From Eledone cirrhosa (taxonomy: Eukaryota), in the NCBI GenBank assembly GCA_964016885.1, contig OZ024742.1, positions 78,244,001 to 78,308,000 on the forward strand: a stretch of DNA of 64,000 nt, in the 5' to 3' direction. How positions within the stretch are numbered: position 1 is the stretch's first letter; every line of letters begins with the position of its first letter. A model generated the notes under the pieces. It searched no databases and was not told where the DNA came from. It saw only the letters and a list, made by a program, of their open reading frames with translations. Position numbers and translations under genes: made by a program. Shown piece by piece: positions 1,270 through 64,000 of the stretch.

Positions 1270-2260
1270 GGGATTGTTTAGTAACAAGGGAGGAATATTT
1301 CAAGTAGGCAGTTTATCTCCCTTGTTGTTTATAGTGTGCATGATCCCTTTAACATTCTTACTTAAAGGAATAATATCTGGTTATGAATTTAAAGGAAAAT
1401 AGCAGATCAACTGTCTATTATCTCTGTATGATCTTAAAACATATGGTCAAGACGAGGCCCAAATCTGTTCATTAGTTATTGCAGTCCAATGCAGCGCTGA
1501 ATGAAATTTAAATTAAAAAAGTGTGGAATATTGATCTTGAAAATAGGAAACGTGCATAAGATAGATGTTATAGAATATACTTCTGGAGAAAGGATTAGAC
1601 ATAGATCAAATGGATACAAATACTTGGGGATATTTGAGATAGATGAGATTATGGGGGTAGGAATGAAAAATGTTTTCGCCCAAGAGTATGCTCGAAATTG
1701 AATGGGAGGTACAAGTTTCAAGCAATTAAAACTTGGGTAGTGCAATTATTTAGATGTGGAGCATTTCTCCCAAAATGCGATGTTGATAGGCTGTGAAGGT
1801 TGTGTGAGCTCCAAGGAAAACGGTATTGAATGGTACATAAAGAATGCAAACGTTGCTGCATATGTTTGTGTGGAAAACGAGGAATTCAAAGAAGAAGATT
1901 GAGAAACATGACAATAGATGGAAAGAAAAGAAGATGCACGATCTATTTACAAGAGATGTTAGCAGAAAAATTGTGAATGGGAAAAAGAAATGTCTGACAA
2001 AATGGGAAGTGTGGGGAAAAGGGAATCATAGTGTGGCATATTGTTATTGAGTGTACAAAACTGGTACAAAGAGAATTTAAAATACGAGGCGACAACGTCG
2101 CAAGAGTCATACATCGAGAACTATGCGGCAATTACGAATTGGGGAAGGCAGATATATAGTATAGGAAAACCACAGAATACGACAAATCAAAACGAGAAGT
2201 TATGATTCAATGTGACCATGATGTTCTCCATAGGAAATCGAACATTGGGGTAATAAACCT
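1270..2260 (+). mobile_element. Degenerate R4/Dong-like (RT + REL endonuclease) LINE fragment
   Basis: ggaatatttcaagtaggcagtttatctcccttgttgttt is a decayed GIFQGDSLSPLLF; ORF piece 1501-1701 has KCG and GYKYLGI; similar to the ORF at 40202-42010. Confidence 0.6.
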
Positions 2261-2271
2261 TTAGAATTATA

Positions 2272-2762
2272 GATACTAGCAGAAAAACCACCCTTTCGGT
2301 GGTTTTCTGCTATTATGTGTAGTGTGCATATTGATATTATACGCAAGTATATATACATGTAGATATGATACATCAAATAAAATCGTAATTGACAATATAT
2401 ACAGAAATTGAACGAAGACTGCGTTACATTGTCGTATGTAATCAGTAACGTAATCCATGATACATTAAAAAAAGACGATATTATATATAAACTGCATTAG
2501 GAGAAAATTAGTGACGGAAATATGTGAATCTTTATTTAAGCGATTGCTAACCGCAAGTGTTGACATTTGAAAATTTTAAAGAAGTGAATCTTAAAATAAC
2601 AAAATTATTTATATTTAATCAAGAATAACGAAATTTAGTAGATAAATTATGTAATATTCATTAATTATTTATTCAAAGTAATCCAACTTATTTTACAAAT
2701 GGGATAAAACAAATATATTCTGGACGCAGTCCCGCACTCCTTACTTTATTATAGTTTAGATT
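2272..2762 (+). mobile_element. Possible Helentron-associated non-autonomous element (HINE/DINE-like)
   Basis: Starts ATACTAG with a subterminal hairpin tagcagaaaaaccacc-ctttc-ggtggttttctgcta (2277-2312); ends tttattatagtttagatt. Confidence 0.3.
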
Positions 2763-3037
2763 GCGTGGCATGAGACAACAGCGTCGCCGACAAAGAAGAA
2801 GAAACCCTGTAACACAATGACAACTTAAAGTGGGAATCATACACATTGCTAACAATGAATAAAGTAGACGTTGAAGTACTGAACTTCCTAGGTGGATAAA
2901 GAAGATTGGACTGCTACAAAAAAGCAATATATTTTGGGTATGTTCTGATACTCCGCAGATTCATCAAATCATGAATATACACACTGTGAGGTTACAGCTG
3001 TTACTTGGTTTCTATTCGTTTCTATTTTTCGCACAAG

Positions 3038-3153
3038 ATTAGCCATTTGAAAGGAGGGGAAAGAGTCGATTAAATCTACTCCAATGTATTACTGGTACTC
3101 TATTTTATACCGTAAGAATAAAAGCAAAGCTAACGTTGGTGGGATTTGAACTC
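3038..3153 (-). mobile_element. tRNA-derived SINE (partial, diverged)
   Basis: Reverse complement has B box gagttcaaatccc and the SINE body seen at 17383-17566 and 46173-46382. Confidence 0.6.
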
Positions 3154-3842
3154 ATAGATTATAATAATTATTATTATTATAATAATCATTATCATCTTCA
3201 TCTTTATCATTTCTATTATTCATATCTCTATAATTATCATATCTATCAGCTACAACATCACTTCTAACACCACTATAATAGGCATCATTATCATTGCAAT
3301 CATCACCATCAACGTCAACATTATCACCAACATCAACCCCACCACCAACATCAACCCCACCACAAATATCACCAATACCACGAACAAAGCCAATACCATC
3401 AACAACAATACCATTTTAATCATCATTTTTCAAACAGAAAATATTTTCAGTCAGATTATATACAGGAGAATTTTCATGGGTATTTGATTGTTCTTTTGTT
3501 TACTGGCTTCGATATTTTTTCATGATTCCTTTTCTAAATAGGCTGCATATAGGTAGATTGTGGTAAACTAGCAGTAAGTCGAAAAGAGTTAACACAACAC
3601 CGCATCATTTGTATATCGTGTGTTGCGTGTATTCATTAGATCCGAAAAGCTGCTTATGCGTAGATGCAGGCGTTTGTTGGTGGGATTTTTTTAGCGTGGA
3701 TTTTGTTCTGGTTTTTGTCTTTCATATCTTCATATTAGTTTTGGATTAGTTTTTCAGTTTGGCTCGATGGGATTTCATGAATAAAACTTTTATTCTAAAC
3801 CAGTGTTTAATTTTTTTGTTTTCCCAACACATCTTGTTATTT

Positions 3843-3866
3843 ATATATATACAGTGTGTGTGTGTG

Positions 3867-3948
<82 letters not shown>

Positions 3949-3974
3949 CTATGTGGTTGTCTGTGCGTAAATAA

Positions 3975-4044
<70 letters not shown>

Positions 4045-4045
4045 G

Positions 4046-4134
<89 letters not shown>

Positions 4135-4147
4135 GTATGTATATATA

Positions 4148-4180
<33 letters not shown>

Positions 4181-4420
4181 GTATGTACGCATTTGTGTGT
4201 GCGTGCGAGTATGTATGTATATCCATATGTGTGTATATATGTATTTATATATATATATTCATCTGTATATATATACATACATGTATGTATGTATATATAT
4301 ATGTGTGTGTGTGTGTGCATGTGTGTTTTGTGTATGTGTGTGTGTCTTTACGAGCGCGTGTGAGCATATTTGTCTTAAGGCATATTTATATGTGTTATAC
4401 ATATGTGCGTATATAATGTA
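3843..4420. repeat. Compound (GT)n/(TA)n microsatellite
   Basis: Direct reading; explains the YIYI/CVCV ORFs. Confidence 0.97.
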
Positions 4421-4851
4421 TTTATGTGGGTGTATATATTTGAGTGAATTTGTGTATATAATCATCTGTATGGTTTTGAATATAAAGTATTTGTGCGTTT
4501 ACAGTCACATACAGTAAACCTCATATTCATGACAAACACAATGTAGAAGCCGCTATAAATCATAAAATTGTATGTAATTCTATGAAACGCTGTGAAGTGG
4601 AATAAACACACAGTTAAGTTCAGCATGTGTAAACATACTTCACTTTTATAACAGTAATATGCTCAAAATACAGTTAGCTTTCGAGTTATATGGGCACAGA
4701 AATGGCTGCCTAATTTACAACCTTACGATGTGGTATTATGTTCGATCTTTGAGCAGCACATAGCCAACTATTTTCTGCGATAGCTTCACGTTGATCAATA
4801 ACTTGTTAATGGAATTTGATAAATGCAATATAACACATAACAAATACATGA

Positions 4852-10350: not shown

Positions 10351-10354
<4 letters not shown>

Positions 10355-11103
10355 ATAATAATAAATTTGAAGACTAAAATCCAAAGAGGGCTCGATAAGG
10401 ATAAATATATATCAAATATTTATTTATTTATATACGTTTATATAATTATTTATTTATTTCTATACACGCATACACACACACACATATTTATATGTGCGTG
10501 GTTTTGTATACCTATGGTAAGTGTTTTGCATATGCTTGTGTATGTACGTATTTGTTTGCGTGTATGTATTTATTTATTTCTATTACTTCTGTATTGTATT
10601 TATTTATTTTGTTCTTAACTCTGAAGCGGAGATTCATTCGGTCTGCTAGTTAGAATTTTAGTCTACGACTTCTGCTATACCATTTACGTGGTTTTGTCTT
10701 TGCGTGCTATTGTTCTCCACGGTCCACATATGACGTATTATCTTCGTTTTGTTCCTTCATTGCCAGAGAACGTCTCTATGAATCACCTAAGAGAACATTA
10801 GTCTACGACCTCTTTTATACCATAAACGTGGTTCTGTCTTTGCGCGTAATTGTTTTTCACCGCTCCTATTAATGACGTATTATATTCGTTTTTTCCCGTT
10901 CTTTGCCAGCGAACGTTTCCACGAACCAAAGTATCGTCTTCCTGTCTTCCTCCGGTTGCAACGTTTTTTGAAATCTCCATTTCTGCGTTTACAGATTGAC
11001 TTTGTTAGTTTCAGAAGATCCCGTTAAGGGTGAAAGCAGCGATTCTTTGCTTAAACTTTATATATATATATATTTATTAGTCTTCAAATTTATTATTATT
11101 CCT
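10351..11103 (+). mobile_element. PLE-like remnant (family B) with short inverted ends between (TA)n tracts
   Basis: aataataataaatttgaagactaa at 10354 is the reverse complement of ttagtcttcaaatttattattatt at 11077; contains a degenerate HHR; same terminus recurs at 12428 and 48241. Confidence 0.55.
11007..11057 (+). ncRNA. Degenerate type I hammerhead ribozyme
   Basis: AGTTT-C(A)GAAGA-tCCC-gttaa-GGGt-GAAA-GCA..TGC-TT-AAACT; core U4 changed to A. Confidence 0.5.
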
Positions 11104-11214: not shown

Positions 11215-11439
11215 TTGTGTGTGTGTGTGGGGGGGGTCCTTATATATGTTTAAATATATGTGAGTGTGTGTAAAATATGTATATGTGCAGTGTCTACGTG
11301 TTCGCATCGATATATGTAGAAGTGAGCATGTCTATGGTTTGTGAGTGTGTGCGTATATGTATGTGTTTGTGTGTGAGTGTCTGTGTGTGTGCGCGCGCGC
11401 GTTTGATTCATTTTCTAGAAAAGTTTATTTACTAGAGTA

Positions 11440-12030
11440 TTACAACCCCACATCAGCAACACTGACAACAGTAACAACCACAATAACAACATTAACAACA
11501 AAAATATCGACAATACTAGCAGCAGCAGCGGCAATAACAATGCCAAGAACATCAACAATAACATCAACAACAATACCAGCAACGACACAATCAACAACAA
11601 TCCCAATAAAACAAAAGTGTTGCCAACAACAACGTTAACAACAACAATATTAAGACCAATAGCGACAACAATACCAACAACAACAACAATACCAGCAACA
11701 ACAACAATAATACTAACAACAACAACAATACCAGCAACAACAACAACAACAACACTAACAACAACAACAATACCATCAACAACAACAGTCCCAATAAAAT
11801 ATACTGTCAACAACAACGTTAACAACAACAATATTAAGAGCAGCAGCAGCAACAACAATACTAACAACAACAAAACCAGCAACAACAACAACAATACTAA
11901 TGACAACATTACCAGCAACAACAACATCAACAACAATCCCAATAAAACAAAATTAACAACAACAACAATATTAACAGCAGCAACAACAACAATACTAACA
12001 GCAGCAACTACAACAATACTAACAACAATA
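11440..12030. repeat. (AAC)n/(AAT)n-rich degenerate satellite
   Basis: Direct reading; cccaataaaa motif recurs at about 11602, 11790 and 11938. Confidence 0.9.
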
Positions 12031-12236
12031 ATACGAAGAACACCATCGAGTAGTAGCCACCAACGGCACACTTGTTTCCTCTTCCTCTCGGCATATGTTT
12101 CGACAACTCACACCTCACCAATCGAAAACTCATAGAAATTATAATTAAAGAGATGTTACAAGGAACTTAGTAAATTAATTAAAAATTGCTCTAAGAGGGA
12201 GAACATGTGTGTTTCTGTGTACAAGTGTGATTCTCT

Positions 12237-12312: not shown

Positions 12313-12412
12313 GTAATTGCTTCTACTTTAGGCACAAGGCCAGGAATTACGCAGTGCATTACTGGTACTTTATTTTATCGACCCCGTAAGGATGAAAGGC
12401 AAAGTCAACAAC
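12313..12412 (-). mobile_element. tRNA-derived SINE, 3' half
   Basis: Matches the body of 17383-17566 (ctttcatccttacggggtcgataaaataaagtaccagt). Confidence 0.8.
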
Positions 12413-12427
12413 TATATATATATATAT

Positions 12428-12563
12428 AGTAATAATAATAAATTTGAAGATTAAAATCCAAAGAGAGCTCGATAAGGATAAATTTATATCAGATATATAA
12501 GAACCGCAGAGCAAATATTTATTAAAATAACGGATTAAAGCTTAAGCAAAGAATCGGTGCTTT
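12428..12563 (-). mobile_element. PLE family B 3' terminus
   Basis: Matches 10351-10414 and, in reverse complement, the HHR stem III region at 11033-11059; flanked by (TA)n. Confidence 0.6.
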
Positions 12564-12588
12564 ATATATATATATAATATATATTATC

Positions 12589-12659
<71 letters not shown>

Positions 12660-12661
<2 letters not shown>

Positions 12662-14218
12662 GAAAATAAGCCAAAGAAGCCTTCAATACATCAAAAGTCT
12701 TTATTAGCCAACAATGTTTCGTCCTATTAAGGACTCATCAGAGCAAGTAAAGCTATAAGAAGCACTATCGGCCAATACAAGCCAAAGCTCAGAAGAATAT
12801 GGAGTATACATACATTGAAGCATAGGAAAATTATCAAGTAGAAATGATCAATTAAAAATTGCTAAGGAAGTGAATAACATTTTGAACCATATTACAAATA
12901 TAGTACAATGCAAAAACTAAAACTAAACACAAGTGGTGATATAAAGCGAGAATTACAGTACTATATATAATATAATATATAATATAATATAATTGATAAT
13001 GATAATAATAATAATATTAAAAGGCCCAATATACATATATATATATATACATATGTATACATATATATACATATATATCAATACACATATCCATCAATAC
13101 AAACACAAACTAACACTTATTAAGAGTTTAAATATAAATAAAAATAAAAATAAAAATATAATACATATATTATTTACAGTATAAAATGATAAAGAAATGA
13201 GTAAAAATAAACATATAATATATGATATACTATATAATTATATAATTTATAATCTCCAGTCAATTTGCACAAACAATATAAATATTACAATAACACTATA
13301 ATAACAATATTATAATATATTGGTGTATAACTTAACAAATCATATAAAGTTACACACAGGGTGAGAAAAAAATATCATACAGAACTAAATTGTGTTGAAA
13401 AAATTGTGCTGGAAAAATATCTATACCGTTGTAAGAAAACAGACGGAGGTCAAGTTTTTATACAATTGGTATAAATAAATATTATCTAAACATTACAAAA
13501 ATTATAAAAATATAAACATATTACAGAATTTACAAAATTTAACATAAGGGTACATCGAATAATCGGTAAATATTTAAGATCTATAGTACGATTACATAGA
13601 GTGATATGATATAACAACTTCAATATCAAATAATAAACATAGTATAATATACATAATTACATGGTTGGTAGACAGACATATGTGAATAAGTGAATAAGAA
13701 CCAGACATAAACTACGCACGGTAGTAAAAAAAATATAAATAAAATCAACCGGAAATCGAAAAACAAAAACAAATATATTTACTTAGGTGTCACAAGCAGT
13801 TAAGTAAAGAAATTTGGAATCAAACCCGGATAAATGACTAGAAAACCGTATTAAATTAATTATTATTGAAAGTATTTAAAATACATAATAAGTCAATACA
13901 AAAATTAGCTATGGTTTAAGTAATCAAAATCTCCAATGTTTAAGATATCTCAATAAAAATATCCAGAATAGAATGAAATATTCTACTATCAGTTGAATAA
14001 TGTTATCTAATAAACGGACTTTAGATAGAACTATGGTAGGCCAATGGATACAGAATAAAGAAAGGTATGGAGGATACGAAGGAGCATAAAATCATAATCA
14101 ATATACTGTATTATACAATAGAAAGGAGCATAAAAGGGAATTGAATATAATTATAGTATAATTGAAGGGGCGAATGACAAGTGTGTGTGGGGGGGGAGGG
14201 GGTTAATTATCTAAATGA
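12660..14218. repeat. Left inverted arm (~1559 bp)
   Basis: Aligned by eye to 15627-17187, with scattered substitutions and small indels. Confidence 0.95.
12699..12752 (-). ncRNA. Type I hammerhead ribozyme (left arm)
   Basis: Minus strand: ctttacttgct-CTGATGA-GTCCT-taat-AGGAC-GAAA-C-att-GTT-ggctaataaag. Confidence 0.85.
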
Positions 14219-14460
14219 GAATCCAAATAAAATAAAATAAAATAAAATAATATAAAATAAAATAAAATAAAATATATAATCAGATATAAACTCATAAGGT
14301 GTTAATAGTGAAAATATAATATTTAAGAAGATAGATATGGTATGGTAGCCGAAAGACTATGAAAGCTAGATCGAAAAGCTGTTAAAAACCAATAATAATA
14401 ATGATAATGATGGTGGTAAACAAAATGAACCTAAACAAAAAAGATAAGGGAATATAGCAG

Positions 14461-15630
14461 CTAATGGATACAATTTACTCTACCAGAACTTTTAGGTTTA
14501 TAATAAAAGTAAGAATTAGAGATGGCGTGGGAGCAGGAAGAGAATATCTCAGACTTTCTATTAAGTAAGAGTTCCCTAGAGAAAATTATAGAGTGTGTCT
14601 CAAGGATACAGAGATTACAGAATTTAGTGTGTGTTGATAGGTTATTAGAGCGTGCTACTATTCGCCAATTAAGGCTATATGGTATATTAGCCCCCTTAAG
14701 ATCCCAGATATGGTGTGCTAAAGAAGTAGAATTCTTAAACTTAACATGTTTAAAATTAGAGATATGAGAATTAAACCTAGTCTTAAAAGTGTTAGATGTT
14801 GAGCCTATATATGTGCTATTAGAGGAATTAGTTTTAACCACACAAGCATAAACGATGTTCCTAGAGAGGCAGTTACCGTTTAAAGGGCAGTTAACACTCA
14901 CTCTACAGTTACACTTCCGGGTGCTATTGATCGGCTGAAGTAGTGATGCATCACTCGTAGGGTTATTATGAGATAAGGTCTGCTCAGGTGGTAAGGCATT
15001 TATGGATCTATGCAGACTAGTAGTACGCATAGAGGAGTAGCCGTCCCTAATGTTCCCATTGTTAGTGCTAGCTAAATGAGAACTAATATTAGGGGTGGTA
15101 GAGAATGATAGTTTAATTACATTTTTATTAAAAATACCATGGTATTTATTAGTAGGAGGGAAATTTTTCTCTAAGATAGAAAAGATAGACCTAGGGATGT
15201 TAGTTAATACTTCCTGATCATATGGCGGGTTAAAATAAGTATTTAGTCTCCTTCTATTTCTATCCTTACCAACTCTACGGTTATCTAATATCCCATTATT
15301 AAGATCTGGGTTACTACGAGGATTAGTTAAAACCACATTATTAGAATCAGCCGAAACCCCATTGAGTCTCTTTCTGTTTCTACCTTTAGTATATCTACTG
15401 CTATCTGGAATCATATCAATAGGATTAGGGCTAATAATAGGATCAGTAGAAACAACACTATTAGAATTAGATTTAGCAAAAGCATTACTACTGAGTGAGC
15501 GCTCAGAGCGCCCAACTTGATCCCTAGAACTATTAGATTTCCTATTACGAATCCGGTGGCTTAACTTATGGATGGGTTCGGATACACCTATGTGATTTCT
15601 ACGATTCTTAAGCTTTCTACTCCCATTCAT
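14461..15630 (-). CDS. PLE GIY-YIG endonuclease with linker (389 aa, lacks RT)
   Basis: PLE linker YFNPPY..FP..IFN; CNCR..CPL..CL; IVY..YIG-ST; catalytic R (FKTRFNSH), E (CNLCILE), N (LLNRKSE); C-terminal CSH; no stops. Confidence 0.85.
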   Translation of the reverse strand: MNGSRKLKNRRNHIGVSEPIHKLSHRIRNRKSNSSRDQVGRSERSLSSNAFAKSNSNSVVSTDPIISPNPIDMIPDSSRYTKGRNRKRLNGVSADSNNVVLTNPRSNPDLNNGILDNRRVGKDRNRRRLNTYFNPPYDQEVLTNIPRSIFSILEKNFPPTNKYHGIFNKNVIKLSFSTTPNISSHLASTNNGNIRDGYSSMRTTSLHRSINALPPEQTLSHNNPTSDASLLQPINSTRKCNCRVSVNCPLNGNCLSRNIVYACVVKTNSSNSTYIGSTSNTFKTRFNSHISNFKHVKFKNSTSLAHHIWDLKGANIPYSLNWRIVARSNNLSTHTKFCNLCILETHSIIFSRELLLNRKSEIFSSCSHAISNSYFYYKPKSSGRVNCIH

Positions 15631-17184
15631 TTAGATAATTAACCCCCCCCCCCCACACACACACACACACTTGTCATTCGCCCCTTCAATTATACTATAA
15701 TTATATTCAATTCCCTTTTATGCTCCTTTCTATTGTATAATACAGTATATTGATTATGATTTTATGCTCCTTCGTATCCTCCATACCTTTCTTTTTTCTG
15801 TCCCCATTGGCCTACCATAGTTCTATTTAAAGTCCGTTTATTAGATAACGTTATTCAACTGATAGTAGTATATTTCATTCTATTCTGGATATTTTTATTG
15901 AGATATCTTAAACATTGGAGATTTTGACTACTTAAACCATAGCTAATTTTGTATTGACTTATTATGTATTTTAAATACTTTCAATAATAATTAATTTAAT
16001 ACGGTTTTCTAGTCATTTATCCGGGTTTGATTCCAAATTTCTTTACTTAACTGCTTGTGGCACCTAAGTAAATATATTTGTTTTTGTTTTTCGATTTCCG
16101 GTTGATTTTATTTATATTTTTTTACTACCGTGCGTAGTTTATGTCTGGTTCTTATTCACTTATTCACATATGTCTGTCTACCAACCATGTAATTATGTAT
16201 ATTATACTATGTTTATTATTTGATATTGAAGTTGTTATATCATATCACTCTATGTAATCGTACTATAGATCTTAAATATTTACCGATTATTCGATGTACC
16301 CTTATGTTAAATTTTGTAAATTCTGTAATATGTTTATATTTTTATAATTTTTGTAATGTTTAGATAATATTTATTTATACCAATTGTATGAAAACTTGAC
16401 CTCCGTCTGTTTTCTTACAACGGTATAGATATTTTTCCAGCACAATTTTTTCAACTCAATTTAGTTCTGTATGATATTTTTTTCTCACCCTGTGTGTAAC
16501 TTTATATGATTTGTTAAGTTATACGCCAATATATTATAATGTTGTTATTATAGTGTTATTGTAATATTTATATTGTTTGTGCAAATTGACCGGAGATTAT
16601 AAATTATAAAATTATATAGTATATTATATATTATATGTTTATTTTTACTCATTTCTTTCTCATTTTATACTGTAAATAATATATGTATTATATTTTTACT
16701 TTTATTTTTATTTATATTTAAACTCTTAATAAGTGTTAGTTTGTGTTTGTATTGATGGATATGTGTATTGATATATATGTATATATATGTATACATATGT
16801 ATATATATATATGTATATTGGGCCTTTTAATATTATTATTATTATCATTATCGATTATATTATATTATATTATATTATATATAGTACTGGAATTCTCGCT
16901 TTATATCACCACTTGTGTTTAGTTTTAGTTTTTGCATTGTACTATATTTGTAATATGGTTCAAAATGTTATTCACTTCCTTAGCAATTTTTACTTGATAA
17001 TTTTTACTTCATAATTTTCCTATGCTTTAATGTATGTATACTCCATATTCTTCTGAGTTTTTGGCTTGTATTGGCCGATAGTGCTTCTTATAGCTTTACT
17101 TGCCCTGATGAGTCCTTAATAGGACGAAACATTGTTGGCTAATAAAGACTTTTGATGTATTGAAGGCTTCTTTGGTTTATTTTC

Positions 17185-17187
<3 letters not shown>
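15627..17187. repeat. Right inverted arm (~1561 bp)
   Basis: Reverse complement of 12660-14218; its inner end supplies the ATG of the ORF. Confidence 0.95.
17094..17147 (+). ncRNA. Type I hammerhead ribozyme (right arm)
   Basis: ctttacttgcc-CTGATGA-GTCCT-taat-AGGAC-GAAA-C-att-GTT-ggctaataaag; stem I pairs at 9 of 11 positions. Confidence 0.85.
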
Positions 17188-17227
<40 letters not shown>

Positions 17228-17382
17228 TCATATATATATATATATATATAGAAAGAGATAGAGAGAGAGATACATATATTTATATATATCGAGAGCAAAA
17301 GAGGGTGAGAGAGAAAATGATATATAAATATATATATATATATATATTTATGTGTGTGTCTGTACATAAATAAATATTCATA

Positions 17383-17566
17383 GGTGGATTGGCAGTATCG
17401 GTAGAGGGTCGGTCATCATGCTTTGACACATAGAGTTACGGCCCTTTCTATTCTGAGTTCAAATCCCGCCGAGGTCAACTTTGCCTTTCATCCTTACGGG
17501 TTCGATAAAATAAAGTACCAGTAATGTACTGGATTATTGCTGGCCTTGTGCCAAAAGGTAGAAACA
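17383..17566 (+). mobile_element. tRNA-derived SINE, full length (octopus-type)
   Basis: A box tggcagtatcgg, B box gagttcaaatccc, tail ttgctggccttgtgcc..gtagaaac; many copies in the window. Confidence 0.85.
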
Positions 17567-17582
17567 AATATATATATTTATA

Positions 17583-17774: not shown

Positions 17775-17972
17775 TTGCTGTTTTAGCCATAAGACAACGC
17801 CATCACACTGGCTGGGTGGGCAGGCCAGTAGTCATTTCTAGAGGTGAGTAAACTGGAGCAACGTGAAATAAAGTGTCTTGCTCAAGGAAACAACACATCA
17901 CCCGGTCCGAGAATTGAACTCACAACCTTTCGATTGCAAGCCCAATGCTTTAACCACTAAGCCATGCGCCCT
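17775..17972 (-). mobile_element. tRNA-derived SINE, second family
   Basis: Minus strand: tggcttagtggttaaagc A box, gagttcaattctc B box, gttgtttccttgagcaagacact central domain. Confidence 0.75.
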
Positions 17973-29792: not shown

Positions 29793-29975
29793 TGTGGATT
29801 GGCAGTATTGGTAGAGTGTCTTATGCCATGCTTTGGTGCATAGAGTTATGGCCCTTGCCATTCTGAGTTCAAATCCCGCCGAGGTTAACTTTGCCTTTCA
29901 TCCTTACGGGGTCGATAAAATAAAGTACCAGTAATACACTAATAATTGCTGGCCTTGTGACTAACGTAGAAACAA
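29793..29975 (+). mobile_element. tRNA-derived SINE inserted in Tx1 ORF1
   Basis: Full match to 17383-17566. Confidence 0.85.
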
Positions 29976-30291
29976 TTAAATTTGAACAACAACCTATTAT
30001 TACACTACATCCAACAAAACACCAGCATCACAGAAAAAGAGTACACAACACCCGAAAAGTTCACACCACCTCCACACATACAAATCACTCGCATCACACA
30101 GAAAACGTACACGACACTAAAACAAAAATTCCCCAAAGACATCGGAGACTTTCGACAAGCACTCTCCAGGAGGATTTATAAGGACATCCTTCCGGAGGAG
30201 GCAACAAGCAGTGAAAAGGATGGAGAAACCATCCTTCCTCTACGAGAAGTAAAGTAAGTGGTCTTTCCCATCTTTTCCACTCCATTTCAAC

Positions 30292-46172: not shown

Positions 46173-46382
46173 TGGATTGGCAGTTTCGGGAGAGCGTCGG
46201 TCAACCTGCTTCGTGGCATAGAGTTACGGCCCTTTACGTTCTGACTTCAAATCCCACCGAGGTTAACTTTGCCTTTCATCCTTACGGGGTCGATAAAAGA
46301 AAATGACAGTCTCGCATTGGGTCGATTTAAACGACTTTCCCCTTCCCCCAAAATTGCTGGCCTTGTGCCGAAATCAGAAACC
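46173..46382 (+). mobile_element. tRNA-derived SINE, longer variant
   Basis: Same head and tail as 17383, plus an extra gggtcgatttaaacgactttccccttcccc segment. Confidence 0.8.
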
Positions 46383-48240: not shown

Positions 48241-48352
48241 AGTAATAATAATAAATTTGAAGACTTAAATCCAAAGAGGGCTCTATAGGGATAAATATAT
48301 ATCAGATATATAAGAACCGTAGATTCTTAATATAATAATCTGTTATTTTAAT
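48241..48352 (-). mobile_element. PLE family B 3' terminus
   Basis: Matches 12428-12510 and 10351-10414; abuts (TA)n. Confidence 0.6.
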
Positions 48353-50460: not shown

Positions 50461-51650
50461 GTCAACATCATTGGATACCATCAGAGTTGCAGGTGTTATA
50501 TCAGAGTTTTCCTTCTCCTAGAATTCTGCATTGACAAAGGCTAAGGGGTCATCTCTCCCGGTGATTTTGGATGGCCATTGACTCTTAAGAGCTCCTTTGC
50601 CCTTTGACAGGTTTTGTTTTTAGTCCTGCAGGATGTCCAAAGTCACCCTCCTCACCAAGAAACTTTGGTGGAGTTGCCAGTTTAGTCGCCAACGACCCAA
50701 CCATGAGACAGGTTGTACTGGCATACATGTTACCAGTAGCACCAACTGGAGACCTGACATACATACATAAATATATACATACATACATACATACATACAT
50801 AAATAAATACATACATATATACATACATACATATATATATACATATATATATACATATACATATATATACATACATATATATATACATATATATATACAT
50901 ATACATATATATACATACATACATATATGGTGGCTGCCAACTTGTTTTCGAGTACGGCCACTACTTTATATTCATGTAGGAGAACCCCTACCGATGCGCT
51001 GAACAAGTGTTACTTTTTAGTCCAGCCAGCGACTTGAAAACTCTGGTACAAACACTACACTTGTGACAATTACTGACACATAGTGCTGGGCTCATGGTAC
51101 CAGGTGATGACAAGTGCAGAGAGATCTCCAGATATAAAGCAATGCCTGTGCCGTGAAGCTTTTATAGTGAGCAAAGGCACTGCACAAAGCCAGTACCACT
51201 CTCTTAACCAAGATGATATTTACCAAAAAGAAGAACAAGTCAACATCATTGGATATCATCAGAGTTGCAGGTGTTATATCAGAGTTTTCCTTCTCCTAGA
51301 ATTCTGCCTTGACAAAGGCTAAGGGGTCATCTTCTTTTTGGTAAAAATCATCTTGGTTAAGAGAGTGGGACTGGCTTTGTGCAGTGCCTTTGCTCACTAT
51401 AAAAGCTTCACGGCACAGGCATTGCTTTATGTCTGGAGATCTCTCTGCACTTGTCGTCACATGGTACCATGGGCCCAGCACTATGTGTCAATAATTGTCA
51501 CAAGTGTAATGTTTGTACCAGAGTTTTCAAGTCGCTGGCTGGACTAAAAAGTCACACTCGTTCAGCGCATCGGTAGGAGTTCTCTTACATGGATATAAAG
51601 TAGTGGCCATACTCGAAAACGAGTTGGCAGCCACCATGTATGTATGTATG
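50461..51650. mobile_element. Rearranged non-autonomous RTE-like element (5' UTR piece + inverted 3' ends) in (ATGT)n
   Basis: 50926-51234 is the reverse complement of 51330-51637; 50461-50554 is repeated at 51239-51332; the 3' end encodes CNVCTRVFKSLAGLKSHTRSAH then an (ATGT)n tail. Confidence 0.75.
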
Positions 51651-58114: not shown

Positions 58115-58300
58115 TAATTGTTTCTACTTTTGGCACAAGGCCAGCAATTACCAGTGTTTTACTGGTACTTTATTTTATCGACCCCGTAAGGAAGAAAGGC
58201 AAAGTTAATCTCGGCGGGATTTGAACTAAGATCATAAAGGGGCGTAACTCTATGCTTAAAAGCATGGTGTCCGACTCTCTACCGATACTGCCAATCCACC
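58115..58300 (-). mobile_element. tRNA-derived SINE, full length
   Basis: Reverse complement matches 17383-17566. Confidence 0.85.
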
Positions 58301-59709: not shown

Positions 59710-59893
59710 ATTGTTTCTACTTTTGGCACAAGGCCAGCAATTATTCCAGTGCATTACTGGTACTTTATTTTATCGACCCCGTAAGGATGAAAGGCAAAGT
59801 TAACCTCGGTGGGATTTGAACTCAGAATGGCAAGGGCCGTAACTCTTTGCGTCAAAGCATGGCGTCCGACCCTCTACCGATACTGCCAATCCA
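59710..59893 (-). mobile_element. tRNA-derived SINE, full length
   Basis: Reverse complement matches 17383-17566. Confidence 0.87.
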
Positions 59894-63928: not shown

Positions 63929-64000
63929 ATCCCGCCGAGGTTAACTTTGCCTTTCATCCTTACGGGGTCGAAAAAATAAAGTACCAGTAATGCACTGAGT
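63929..64000 (+). mobile_element. tRNA-derived SINE (5'-truncated, runs off the window)
   Basis: atcccgccgaggttaactttgcctttcatccttacggggtcga. Confidence 0.85.

Follow-up and report, generated by a model that had tools for sequence, protein, structure and literature searches.

We conclude that the insertion at 12660..17186 (minus strand) of the window, the 64,000-nucleotide stretch of Eledone cirrhosa contig OZ024742.1 analysed here, is almost certainly, in this assembly, a single 5'-truncated copy of a Hydra-type PLE lying head to head with its own inverted 3' end, likely the product of one insertion event. The locus is a known insertion shape for PLEs and not a new mobile element. The initial annotation had offered this reading beside another, a propagating, endonuclease-only element with ribozyme-ended terminal inverted repeats (TIRs) that borrows its RT in trans.

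Set against the 4681-nt natural unit of one family copy, L068, the sense part of the insertion covers 1697-4681 and the inverted part 3099-4681, with both 3' ends facing outward. The left arm (12660..14218, minus strand) is the sense-oriented distal 1.56 kb of the family's 1.8-kb 3' UTR, and its sequence also lies 3' of the ORF in other family copies; the proximal 3' UTR (14219..14460, minus strand) is present once, unduplicated. The right arm (15627..17186, plus strand) is a second copy of the 3' end, inverted and 5'-truncated, that is, an inverted pLTR. The description of two near-identical inverted arms within (TA)n holds: aligning 12660-14218 with 15627-17187 gave 1525 identities, 28 substitutions and 14 gap columns over 1567 columns (97.3%), the element's right boundary is 17186 (TTTTCAT), and (TA)n adjoins both ends (12563..12659 on the left, in which a target-site duplication is indistinguishable, and 17187..17289 on the right, neither assigned a strand). 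The inverted arm is indeed long but not exceptionally so, being the third longest of 23 measured. On the window's plus strand, the differences between the arms include 10 A>G against 2 T>C, a skew spotted post hoc. A-to-I editing of a hairpin transcript was rejected as the origin of the differences, as no comparable bias is seen across the family (sense arms p 0.18, inverted arms p 0.46, ORF p 0.68).

The ORF between the arms (14461..15630, minus strand) comprises the C-terminal 389 codons of the family's 895-aa RT-EN ORF: the remainder of an insert, the FNPPY block, a CxCX5C linker and the GIY-YIG endonuclease. It is stop-free, as annotated, has an in-frame stop immediately 5' of its ATG, and shares 89-94% identity with the C-terminal portion of four long family ORFs. 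Pfam recognises its GIY-YIG domain only weakly (E 0.0023; 18.6 bits, cut-off 22.6), and a profile from 97 related PLE proteins matches window positions 15276-14503 with E 1.7e-73. The same profile found no RT part anywhere in the window, in agreement with the reported absence of RT at the locus. The ATG (15630-15628) does form the innermost bases of the right arm. It corresponds to Met506 of the ORF of L049, a copy with a full-length frame, and so lies 505 codons in, behind the RT thumb; judged from the sequence, the apparent start codon is this family-internal methionine, retained through a 4-nt ATGA microhomology at the inversion junction (15627..15630, minus strand) that contains it and occurs both in the parent sequence that continues into RT and in the inverted arm. 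The 130 residues before FNPPY, whose lack of thumb similarity had been taken to keep the endonuclease-only reading open, belong to a family-wide, N/S/R-rich insert of about 140 aa between the RT thumb and FNPPY, so that argument fails. Part of the insert occupies 15268..15630 (minus strand; boundary approximate); in L049 it spans residues 488-627, where pLDDT is under 50 and disorder is predicted, and it is missing from most of 96 homologues.

The junction between arm and ORF is peculiar to this locus. A pattern count across the genome, allowing up to 2 mismatches and with reversed patterns as controls, returned one match for the arm/ORF junction, 229 for the RT-continuing sequence and none for the controls, and it is mainly on this count that uniqueness rests. 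A DNA search across the junction agrees: among the best 40 of 1087 candidates, the window alone covers both sides. Our sample of loci, the best 40 of about 1000-1200 candidates, came from one search ranked by likeness to the whole spacer and is therefore biased to long copies; in it, 38 of the 39 other top copies extend upstream into RT-thumb-side sequence and the remaining one is truncated 54 nt further in. The initial annotation had held that copies running on into RT past a junction unique to this locus would mark an ordinary truncated PLE, and this is the pattern found. Across the 40 loci, the 5' ends are spread over positions 1 to 1754, and 24 loci carry an inverted piece on the 5' side, all with different junctions. 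The inverted piece of L057, which is internal rather than a 3' end, was excluded from the inverted-arm counts. Short overlaps like that at the window junction are present at many other family junctions.

Of the competing accounts, the one that fares best is still very improbable: that the inverted arm was gained after insertion at the DNA level, by fold-back, template switch or gene conversion from the left arm, without a second priming. The arms do share family-rare bases (7 sites found in at most two other sequences, 4 of these in none; 3 sites under stricter filters), and both ends of the insertion read CAT-TATA, whereas most other untailed family ends read CAT-AA, with neither of its ends tailed. 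Such shared bases are, however, also expected if one source element templated both arms. Moreover, the duplication halts at the element's fixed 3' end and includes no unique flank, 22 of the 24 inverted family pieces begin at one of two fixed 3' ends, and the inverted arm is no nearer its own partner (2.0%) than two other copies (1.9%). When templating by one RNA or by two was compared across 17 loci, only 2 had an inverted arm nearer to its own partner than to any other copy, most differences being private.

The endonuclease-only element would, if true, represent a new non-autonomous class; the data exclude it for this genome assembly, and we give it even less credence than a post-insertion arm. 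In its favour are the open frame with an ATG at the junction and the recurrence in the family of RT-less copies with an inverted arm, of which five more occur among 30 endonuclease matches. Yet each of these has its own junction, no group of loci has a common junction together with both termini, and the single window junction stands against 229 RT-continuing sites; because the junction is unique and nearly all other top copies continue toward RT, this reading is refuted. The ATG is an internal methionine of the family, the native 5' UTR is gone, the upstream arm is antisense, and the copy encodes no RT. Nor is there a sign of selection in the private changes of the window ORF (10 nonsynonymous at 814 sites and 2 synonymous at 224 sites, a ratio of about 1.4 on small numbers), and the same codons are equally open in 19 of 38 other copies from the best 40 of about 1000-1200 candidates. 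The window copy is likely decaying neutrally, its frame being open because it is young and not because it is under selection. No endonuclease-only PLE derivative was found in the literature, judging by titles and abstract openings. Least probable of all is an assembly artefact, a collapsed or mis-joined repeat: inverted PLE structures are known to trouble assemblies, but the arm differences (28 substitutions and 14 gap columns) are mostly private to one arm, the window lies within a 379 Mb contig, and the junction overlap is short, as elsewhere in the family.

Each arm carries a type I hammerhead motif near its outer end, at 12687..12757 (minus strand) in the sense copy (Rfam HH9, 27.2 bits, E 5.5e-5, and a motif scan) and at 17089..17159 (plus strand) in the inverted copy (HH9, 29.1 bits, E 1.3e-5). 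Both are absent from a default Rfam scan because they score under the HH9 gathering score of 52. The core CUGAUGA, stem II and GAAA are intact in both, and cuts are predicted after 12710, about 50 nt from the element end, and after 17136. The sense copy has one C>U change that leaves a G-U pair in stem I; the inverted copy has the motif version found most often in the family (17 of 52 occurrences). The motif scan found no further hammerhead in the window, and unconstrained folding of the element ends gave no clear hammerhead (z -0.6 to -2.2). The annotated placement of the two motifs thus stands, but ribozyme capping of both ends does not: each motif is in sense solely on the strand running toward its own end, and any one transcript would therefore have one sense ribozyme, not two caps. 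This also argues against the endonuclease-only element.

The parent family has a unit of 4681 nt, with a 189-nt 5' UTR, an 895-codon RT-EN ORF and a 1.8-kb 3' UTR bearing the hammerhead. It has at least 229 copies across the ORF junction point, and its sequence is present in four DNA sequencing runs. Four copies retain an unbroken RT-plus-endonuclease frame of 872-931 codons (895 aa in L049). Pfam found no RT family in the full ORFs, a PDB sequence search of them gave no match, and the best that a profile search with a full ORF returned was a match at E 1.4 to a structure labelled as a retron-type RT. Assignment as an RT is therefore based on motifs, homologues and fold; in a structure model of the full ORF (pLDDT 82), the best fold matches are to telomerase RT (6zdq, E 1.8e-9). 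L049 thus has the single ORF with telomerase-like RT and C-terminal GIY-YIG of EN+ PLEs, the window copy having the EN half only, and the family shows pLTRs (direct in L038, L049, L058, L065 and L068), 5' truncation and inverted 5' copies. Its motifs (DKT, CxCX5C, RWR, TA targeting and hammerhead) would place it in the Hydra clade. The full ORFs read PADKTKNLY, with DKT instead of DKG (D 99%, K 100% and T 96% among 96 homologues), and have RWR for the N-terminal RWK (third-position K in 62% of homologues). The window ORF has CNCRVSVNC as the linker CxCX5C (motif in 94 of 96 homologues), and CNLCILE and NRKSEIFSSCSH as the CxxC and CxH beside the conserved E and N; judged by eye, the GIY-YIG core contains no cysteine pair (CCHH), and the protein blocks agree with published Hydra reference proteins. 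A canonical hammerhead near the 3' end is present at motif level, by comparison with the published supplement table. Insertion is into (TA)n: in 29 of 34 cases, TA/AT steps make up more than 75% of the 24 nt beyond the sense 3' end, and the other five ends reach TA runs within a few bases.

How might a head-to-head PLE copy of this kind arise? The protein of a full-length relative would cut a (TA)n tract, each of the two target strands would prime cDNA synthesis at the fixed 3' start site of the family, one cDNA would end at about 2.97 kb and the other at about 1.56 kb, and the incomplete ends of both would be joined at ATGA. We infer this two-strand route from PLE biochemistry, in which the protein is reported to nick and extend both target strands from fixed internal start sites (PMC11167929).

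Family ends can carry a tail, the first 103 nt of the 5' UTR. Among 17 scoreable two-ended copies (loci without a scoreable 3' end excluded), the tail is on exactly one end in 16 and on both in none (p = 2.5e-4 against independent ends); the window copy, with no tail at either end, is the sole exception. A tentative explanation, to which we give somewhat less than even odds, is that the PLE complex uses two fixed sites on the RNA, 103 nt apart, and primes each target strand at a different one, which would explain the single tails. If so, target-primed reverse transcription from two ends would be recorded in this family on the scale of a whole genome, what has been published as 'tail often at one end only' would be nearly a rule, and the window copy would be a rare case of the same site used on both strands. 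The one-ended 103-nt tail and the 4.7-kb unit are mildly unusual traits.

The locus itself is of little weight, beyond the warning that a truncated PLE with a long inverted end can pass for a TIR transposon that carries a gene of its own. The family is of modest value as a young, abundant and unusually long Hydra-type PLE with open full-length frames, and its tail and strong one-tail pattern make it a convenient data set on PLE priming of both target strands.

Attached inverted, truncated copies are part of the general description of PLEs, and one is on record in the Hydra family Penelope-13_HM (Craig et al. 2021, PMC8557442). Inverted-pLTR EN+ insertions (fig. 2 of that paper; Adineta vaga Pen2a, PMC3846280) share with the window copy a head-to-head inverted truncated piece at the 5' end, and with the family an optional one-end tail and microhomology at a 5' junction; the published tails are 30-40 nt, whereas the family's is 103 nt and the window copy is untailed. 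In-frame low-complexity inserts between RT and EN are likewise found in Adineta vaga Penelopes (Pen2a lineage), where they are Asn-rich; there they measure 460-554 aa with 25-30% N, against about 140 aa and 28 of 165 residues (between SGY and FNPPY) here (PMC3846280). The mechanism draws on in vitro work with the Anolis Poseidon element PAc (Frangieh et al. 2024, PMC11167929), in which AT-rich DNA is cut and extended on both strands and the tail is bounded by two fixed internal start sites of the RT. PAc belongs to another clade and has these sites within the start of the ORF; the tail here is the beginning of the 5' UTR. The closest likeness is to the Hydra clade of C-terminal EN+ PLEs (for example, Hydra-1_Obim and Penelope-13_HM), which as described by Craig et al. 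(PMC8557442) have a single RT-EN ORF, DKT, RW(K/R), CxCX5C, CxxC before E, CxH after N and (TA)n targeting, several listed families also having a 3' hammerhead whose stem III is 3 bp long and whose cut site has U, as here. The family is nonetheless distinct from Hydra-1_Obim, as their hammerhead sequences differ. The clade is 'generally <3 kb', a tendency rather than a strict criterion, against 4.68 kb here, and most homologues' ORFs are about 700-740 aa against 895 aa; the insert of some 140 aa behind the thumb and the 1.8-kb 3' UTR are further differences.

The element at 12660–17186 is an ordinary truncated copy of a Penelope-like element (PLE). As the initial annotation described, its inverted arms (12660–14218 and 15627–17186) are near-identical (97.3% in alignment, 1,525 of 1,567 columns, 28 substitutions) and (TA)n adjoins both outer ends. 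A 389-aa frame without stops runs through 14461–15630 on the minus strand; its GIY-YIG domain gives a weak Pfam match (E = 0.0023). Searched with a profile built from related PLE proteins, however, the window yields a match to the frame at E = 1.7e-73 and no reverse transcriptase (RT) portion anywhere. A hammerhead motif of type I lies in each arm (Rfam HH9; E = 1.3e-5 and 5.5e-5, both below the gathering score); the core is intact and, by motif scan, cleavage is predicted 50 nt from the element end. The two motifs are sense on opposite strands, each on the one that runs outward through its own end, so that a single transcript would hold one sense ribozyme, not two.

Two origins had been proposed: a one-off 5′-truncated PLE insertion with an inverted 3′ copy, or a propagating, endonuclease-only element with terminal inverted repeats. 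A search of the animal's own 3.0-Gb genome with the spacer returned 1,220 candidates, and among the 40 scored are 39 further loci, 93–98% identical to the spacer. Upstream of the window's junction position, 38 of these 39 continue in family coding sequence (…HNMAM-NGSR…), not inverted arm, and the remaining locus has its truncation point 54 nt deeper in the unit than the window copy; in four loci the frame is unbroken for 872–931 codons, so the search for RT upstream in other copies, which the annotation had proposed, gave a positive answer. The junction itself is single: a 28-nt pattern across it (≤2 mismatches) occurs once in the genome, against 229 occurrences of the matching pattern with RT-side sequence (reversed-pattern controls, 0), and among 40 scored hits of a DNA search across the junction the window alone covers both sides. 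The copy begins at unit position 1697, Met506, behind the RT thumb, and the inverted arm has at its inner end four bases, ATGA, in common with the parent sequence, which accounts for the ATG at the junction. These features support a truncated insertion, as do inverted family pieces at the 5′ side of 24 of the 40 loci (window counted in); the single junction and the upstream continuation of other copies refute a propagating element.

The family has two fixed 3′ ends, and 22 of the 24 inverted pieces begin at one or other of them. Arms are 49 to 2,662 nt long; of 23 measured, only two are longer than the window's, and every inversion junction in the 40 loci is different. RT-less copies with inverted ends arise repeatedly through truncation: among 30 loci fetched by the endonuclease part alone, another five (L077, L084, L085, L088 and L100) combine a missing RT with an inverted arm, at five different junctions, and none is seen multiplying as a unit, on which ground too the propagating element was rejected. 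A near-full-length copy, L045 (G000:C9:18378333-18388233), has a 2.66-kb inverted arm holding the whole endonuclease region; in this copy and in L080 two ORF parts lie head to head. In L069 the two arms have 17–18 bases in common that no other copy has; they differ from each other by 1.1% and from any other copy by >4%, a likeness that might reflect copying from a single template or conversion of one arm by the other.

The natural unit (reference copy L068) spans 4,681 nt: a 189-nt 5′ UTR, the ORF and a ~1.8-kb 3′ UTR, in which a hammerhead precedes the TTTTCAT terminus. Direct terminal repeats (pLTRs) are present in several copies. The 895-aa reference protein (L049) carries RWR, DKT, FDID, MGS, YRDD, a thumb (NHP…SGY), FNPPY, CxCX5C and the endonuclease. 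Neither Pfam nor PDB sequence searches named an RT in the full-length ORF; the best fold matches of its predicted model (pLDDT 82, pTM 0.80) are telomerase RTs (6zdq, E = 1.8e-9; 3du5, E = 5.6e-9). Homologues number 416 at E ≤ 0.001 among 8,000 scored, most of those listed being ~700–740 aa. SGY and FNPPY lie 165 aa apart, compared with a median of 28 in homologues where both can be placed, and the intervening stretch is predicted to be disordered in the structure model. The 130 residues before FNPPY are indeed not thumb-like, as had been observed, but because they are the rest of a ~140-aa insert, which lends no support to an endonuclease-only element.

Half of the other copies (19 of 38) are just as open over the window ORF's codons. 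A dN/dS comparison of its private changes (10 nonsynonymous on 814 sites, 2 synonymous on 224) shows no sign of constraint, on small numbers, and private divergence is ~1% in the spacer and in both arms; this pattern fits a young, unconstrained copy. The copy lacks the family 5′ UTR and its upstream arm runs antisense, so an endonuclease-only transcript would require a chance promoter. Read-through RNA would form a 1.56-kb hairpin.

Insertion is into TA at 29 of 34 family ends by strict score. Self-priming on an antisense template has been put forward in an older model (PMC3846280). We infer that the arms are two cDNAs, one primed on each target strand, both halted early and joined by their unfinished ends at ATGA, because the anole PLE protein is described as cleaving and extending both strands of AT-rich DNA in vitro (PMC11167929). 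The family has two 3′ ends, TTTTCAT and a point 103 nt beyond, and the optional 103-nt tail (3′ ends of copies L031–L069) is the start of the 5′ UTR. Among 17 scoreable two-ended copies, the tail is on the sense end only in 11, the inverted end only in 5, both in none and neither in one, the window; 16 of the 17 thus have a single tail, a departure from independence of the ends (p = 2.5e-4). Rare bases common to the window's arms (7 sites, 3 under stricter filters) fit one source element and are compatible with one RNA or two.

The window holds other repeats. A separate fold-back of ~710 nt lies at 50926–51640, with (TA/CA)n and (TATG)n repeats on its two sides; its ~320-nt arms are 95% complementary and flank a 95-nt spacer. 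It showed no relation to the PLE family and no strict hammerhead motif, and may be a different element's short two-armed insertion. A dispersed ~180-nt repeat of SINE-like size (12314–12412, 17385–17570, 29795–29978, 46173–46310, 58115–58298, 59710–59893 and 63929–64000; 85–94% alike) is present on both sides of the element. A second short repeat (12430–12510, 10353–10422 and 48243–48323; 91–93% alike) starts directly after (TA)n and may be the terminus of a different element that targets TA. A tRNA-like match at 17907–17964, minus strand (Rfam, 29.8 bits, barely above cut-off, model positions 8–63), is probably the head of a tRNA-derived repeat. The open frames on the two strands of a degenerate (CAA)n-rich array at 11419–12135 are spurious.

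By its motifs, hammerhead and targeting, the family is classed as a Hydra-type, endonuclease-bearing PLE, probably an uncatalogued one. The Hydra diagnostics listed in PMC8557442 are DKT, an RWK-type motif, CxCX5C, CxxC and CxH beside E and N, a canonical hammerhead and (TA)n targeting, all found here; Hydra elements are also described as generally <3 kb, a length that this family exceeds. We found no literature on Hydra-type GIY-YIG elements in octopus beyond that paper, and the sole cephalopod Hydra family listed in its supplement has a different hammerhead sequence. The locus resembles known PLEs: insertions described in PMC8557442 are heavily 5′-truncated and often bear an adjacent inverted, 5′-truncated copy at the 5′ end, the same shape as here. 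The Hydra family Penelope-13_HM in its supplement has such a copy, of 966 nt, and a hammerhead on each strand. Rotifer Penelopes likewise have in-frame inserts, asparagine-rich, between RT and endonuclease (PMC3846280). Two fixed internal RNA start sites bound the tail of the anole PLE (PMC11167929), comparable to the two ends 103 nt apart here, although PLE tails as described are 30–40 nt and this one is longer.
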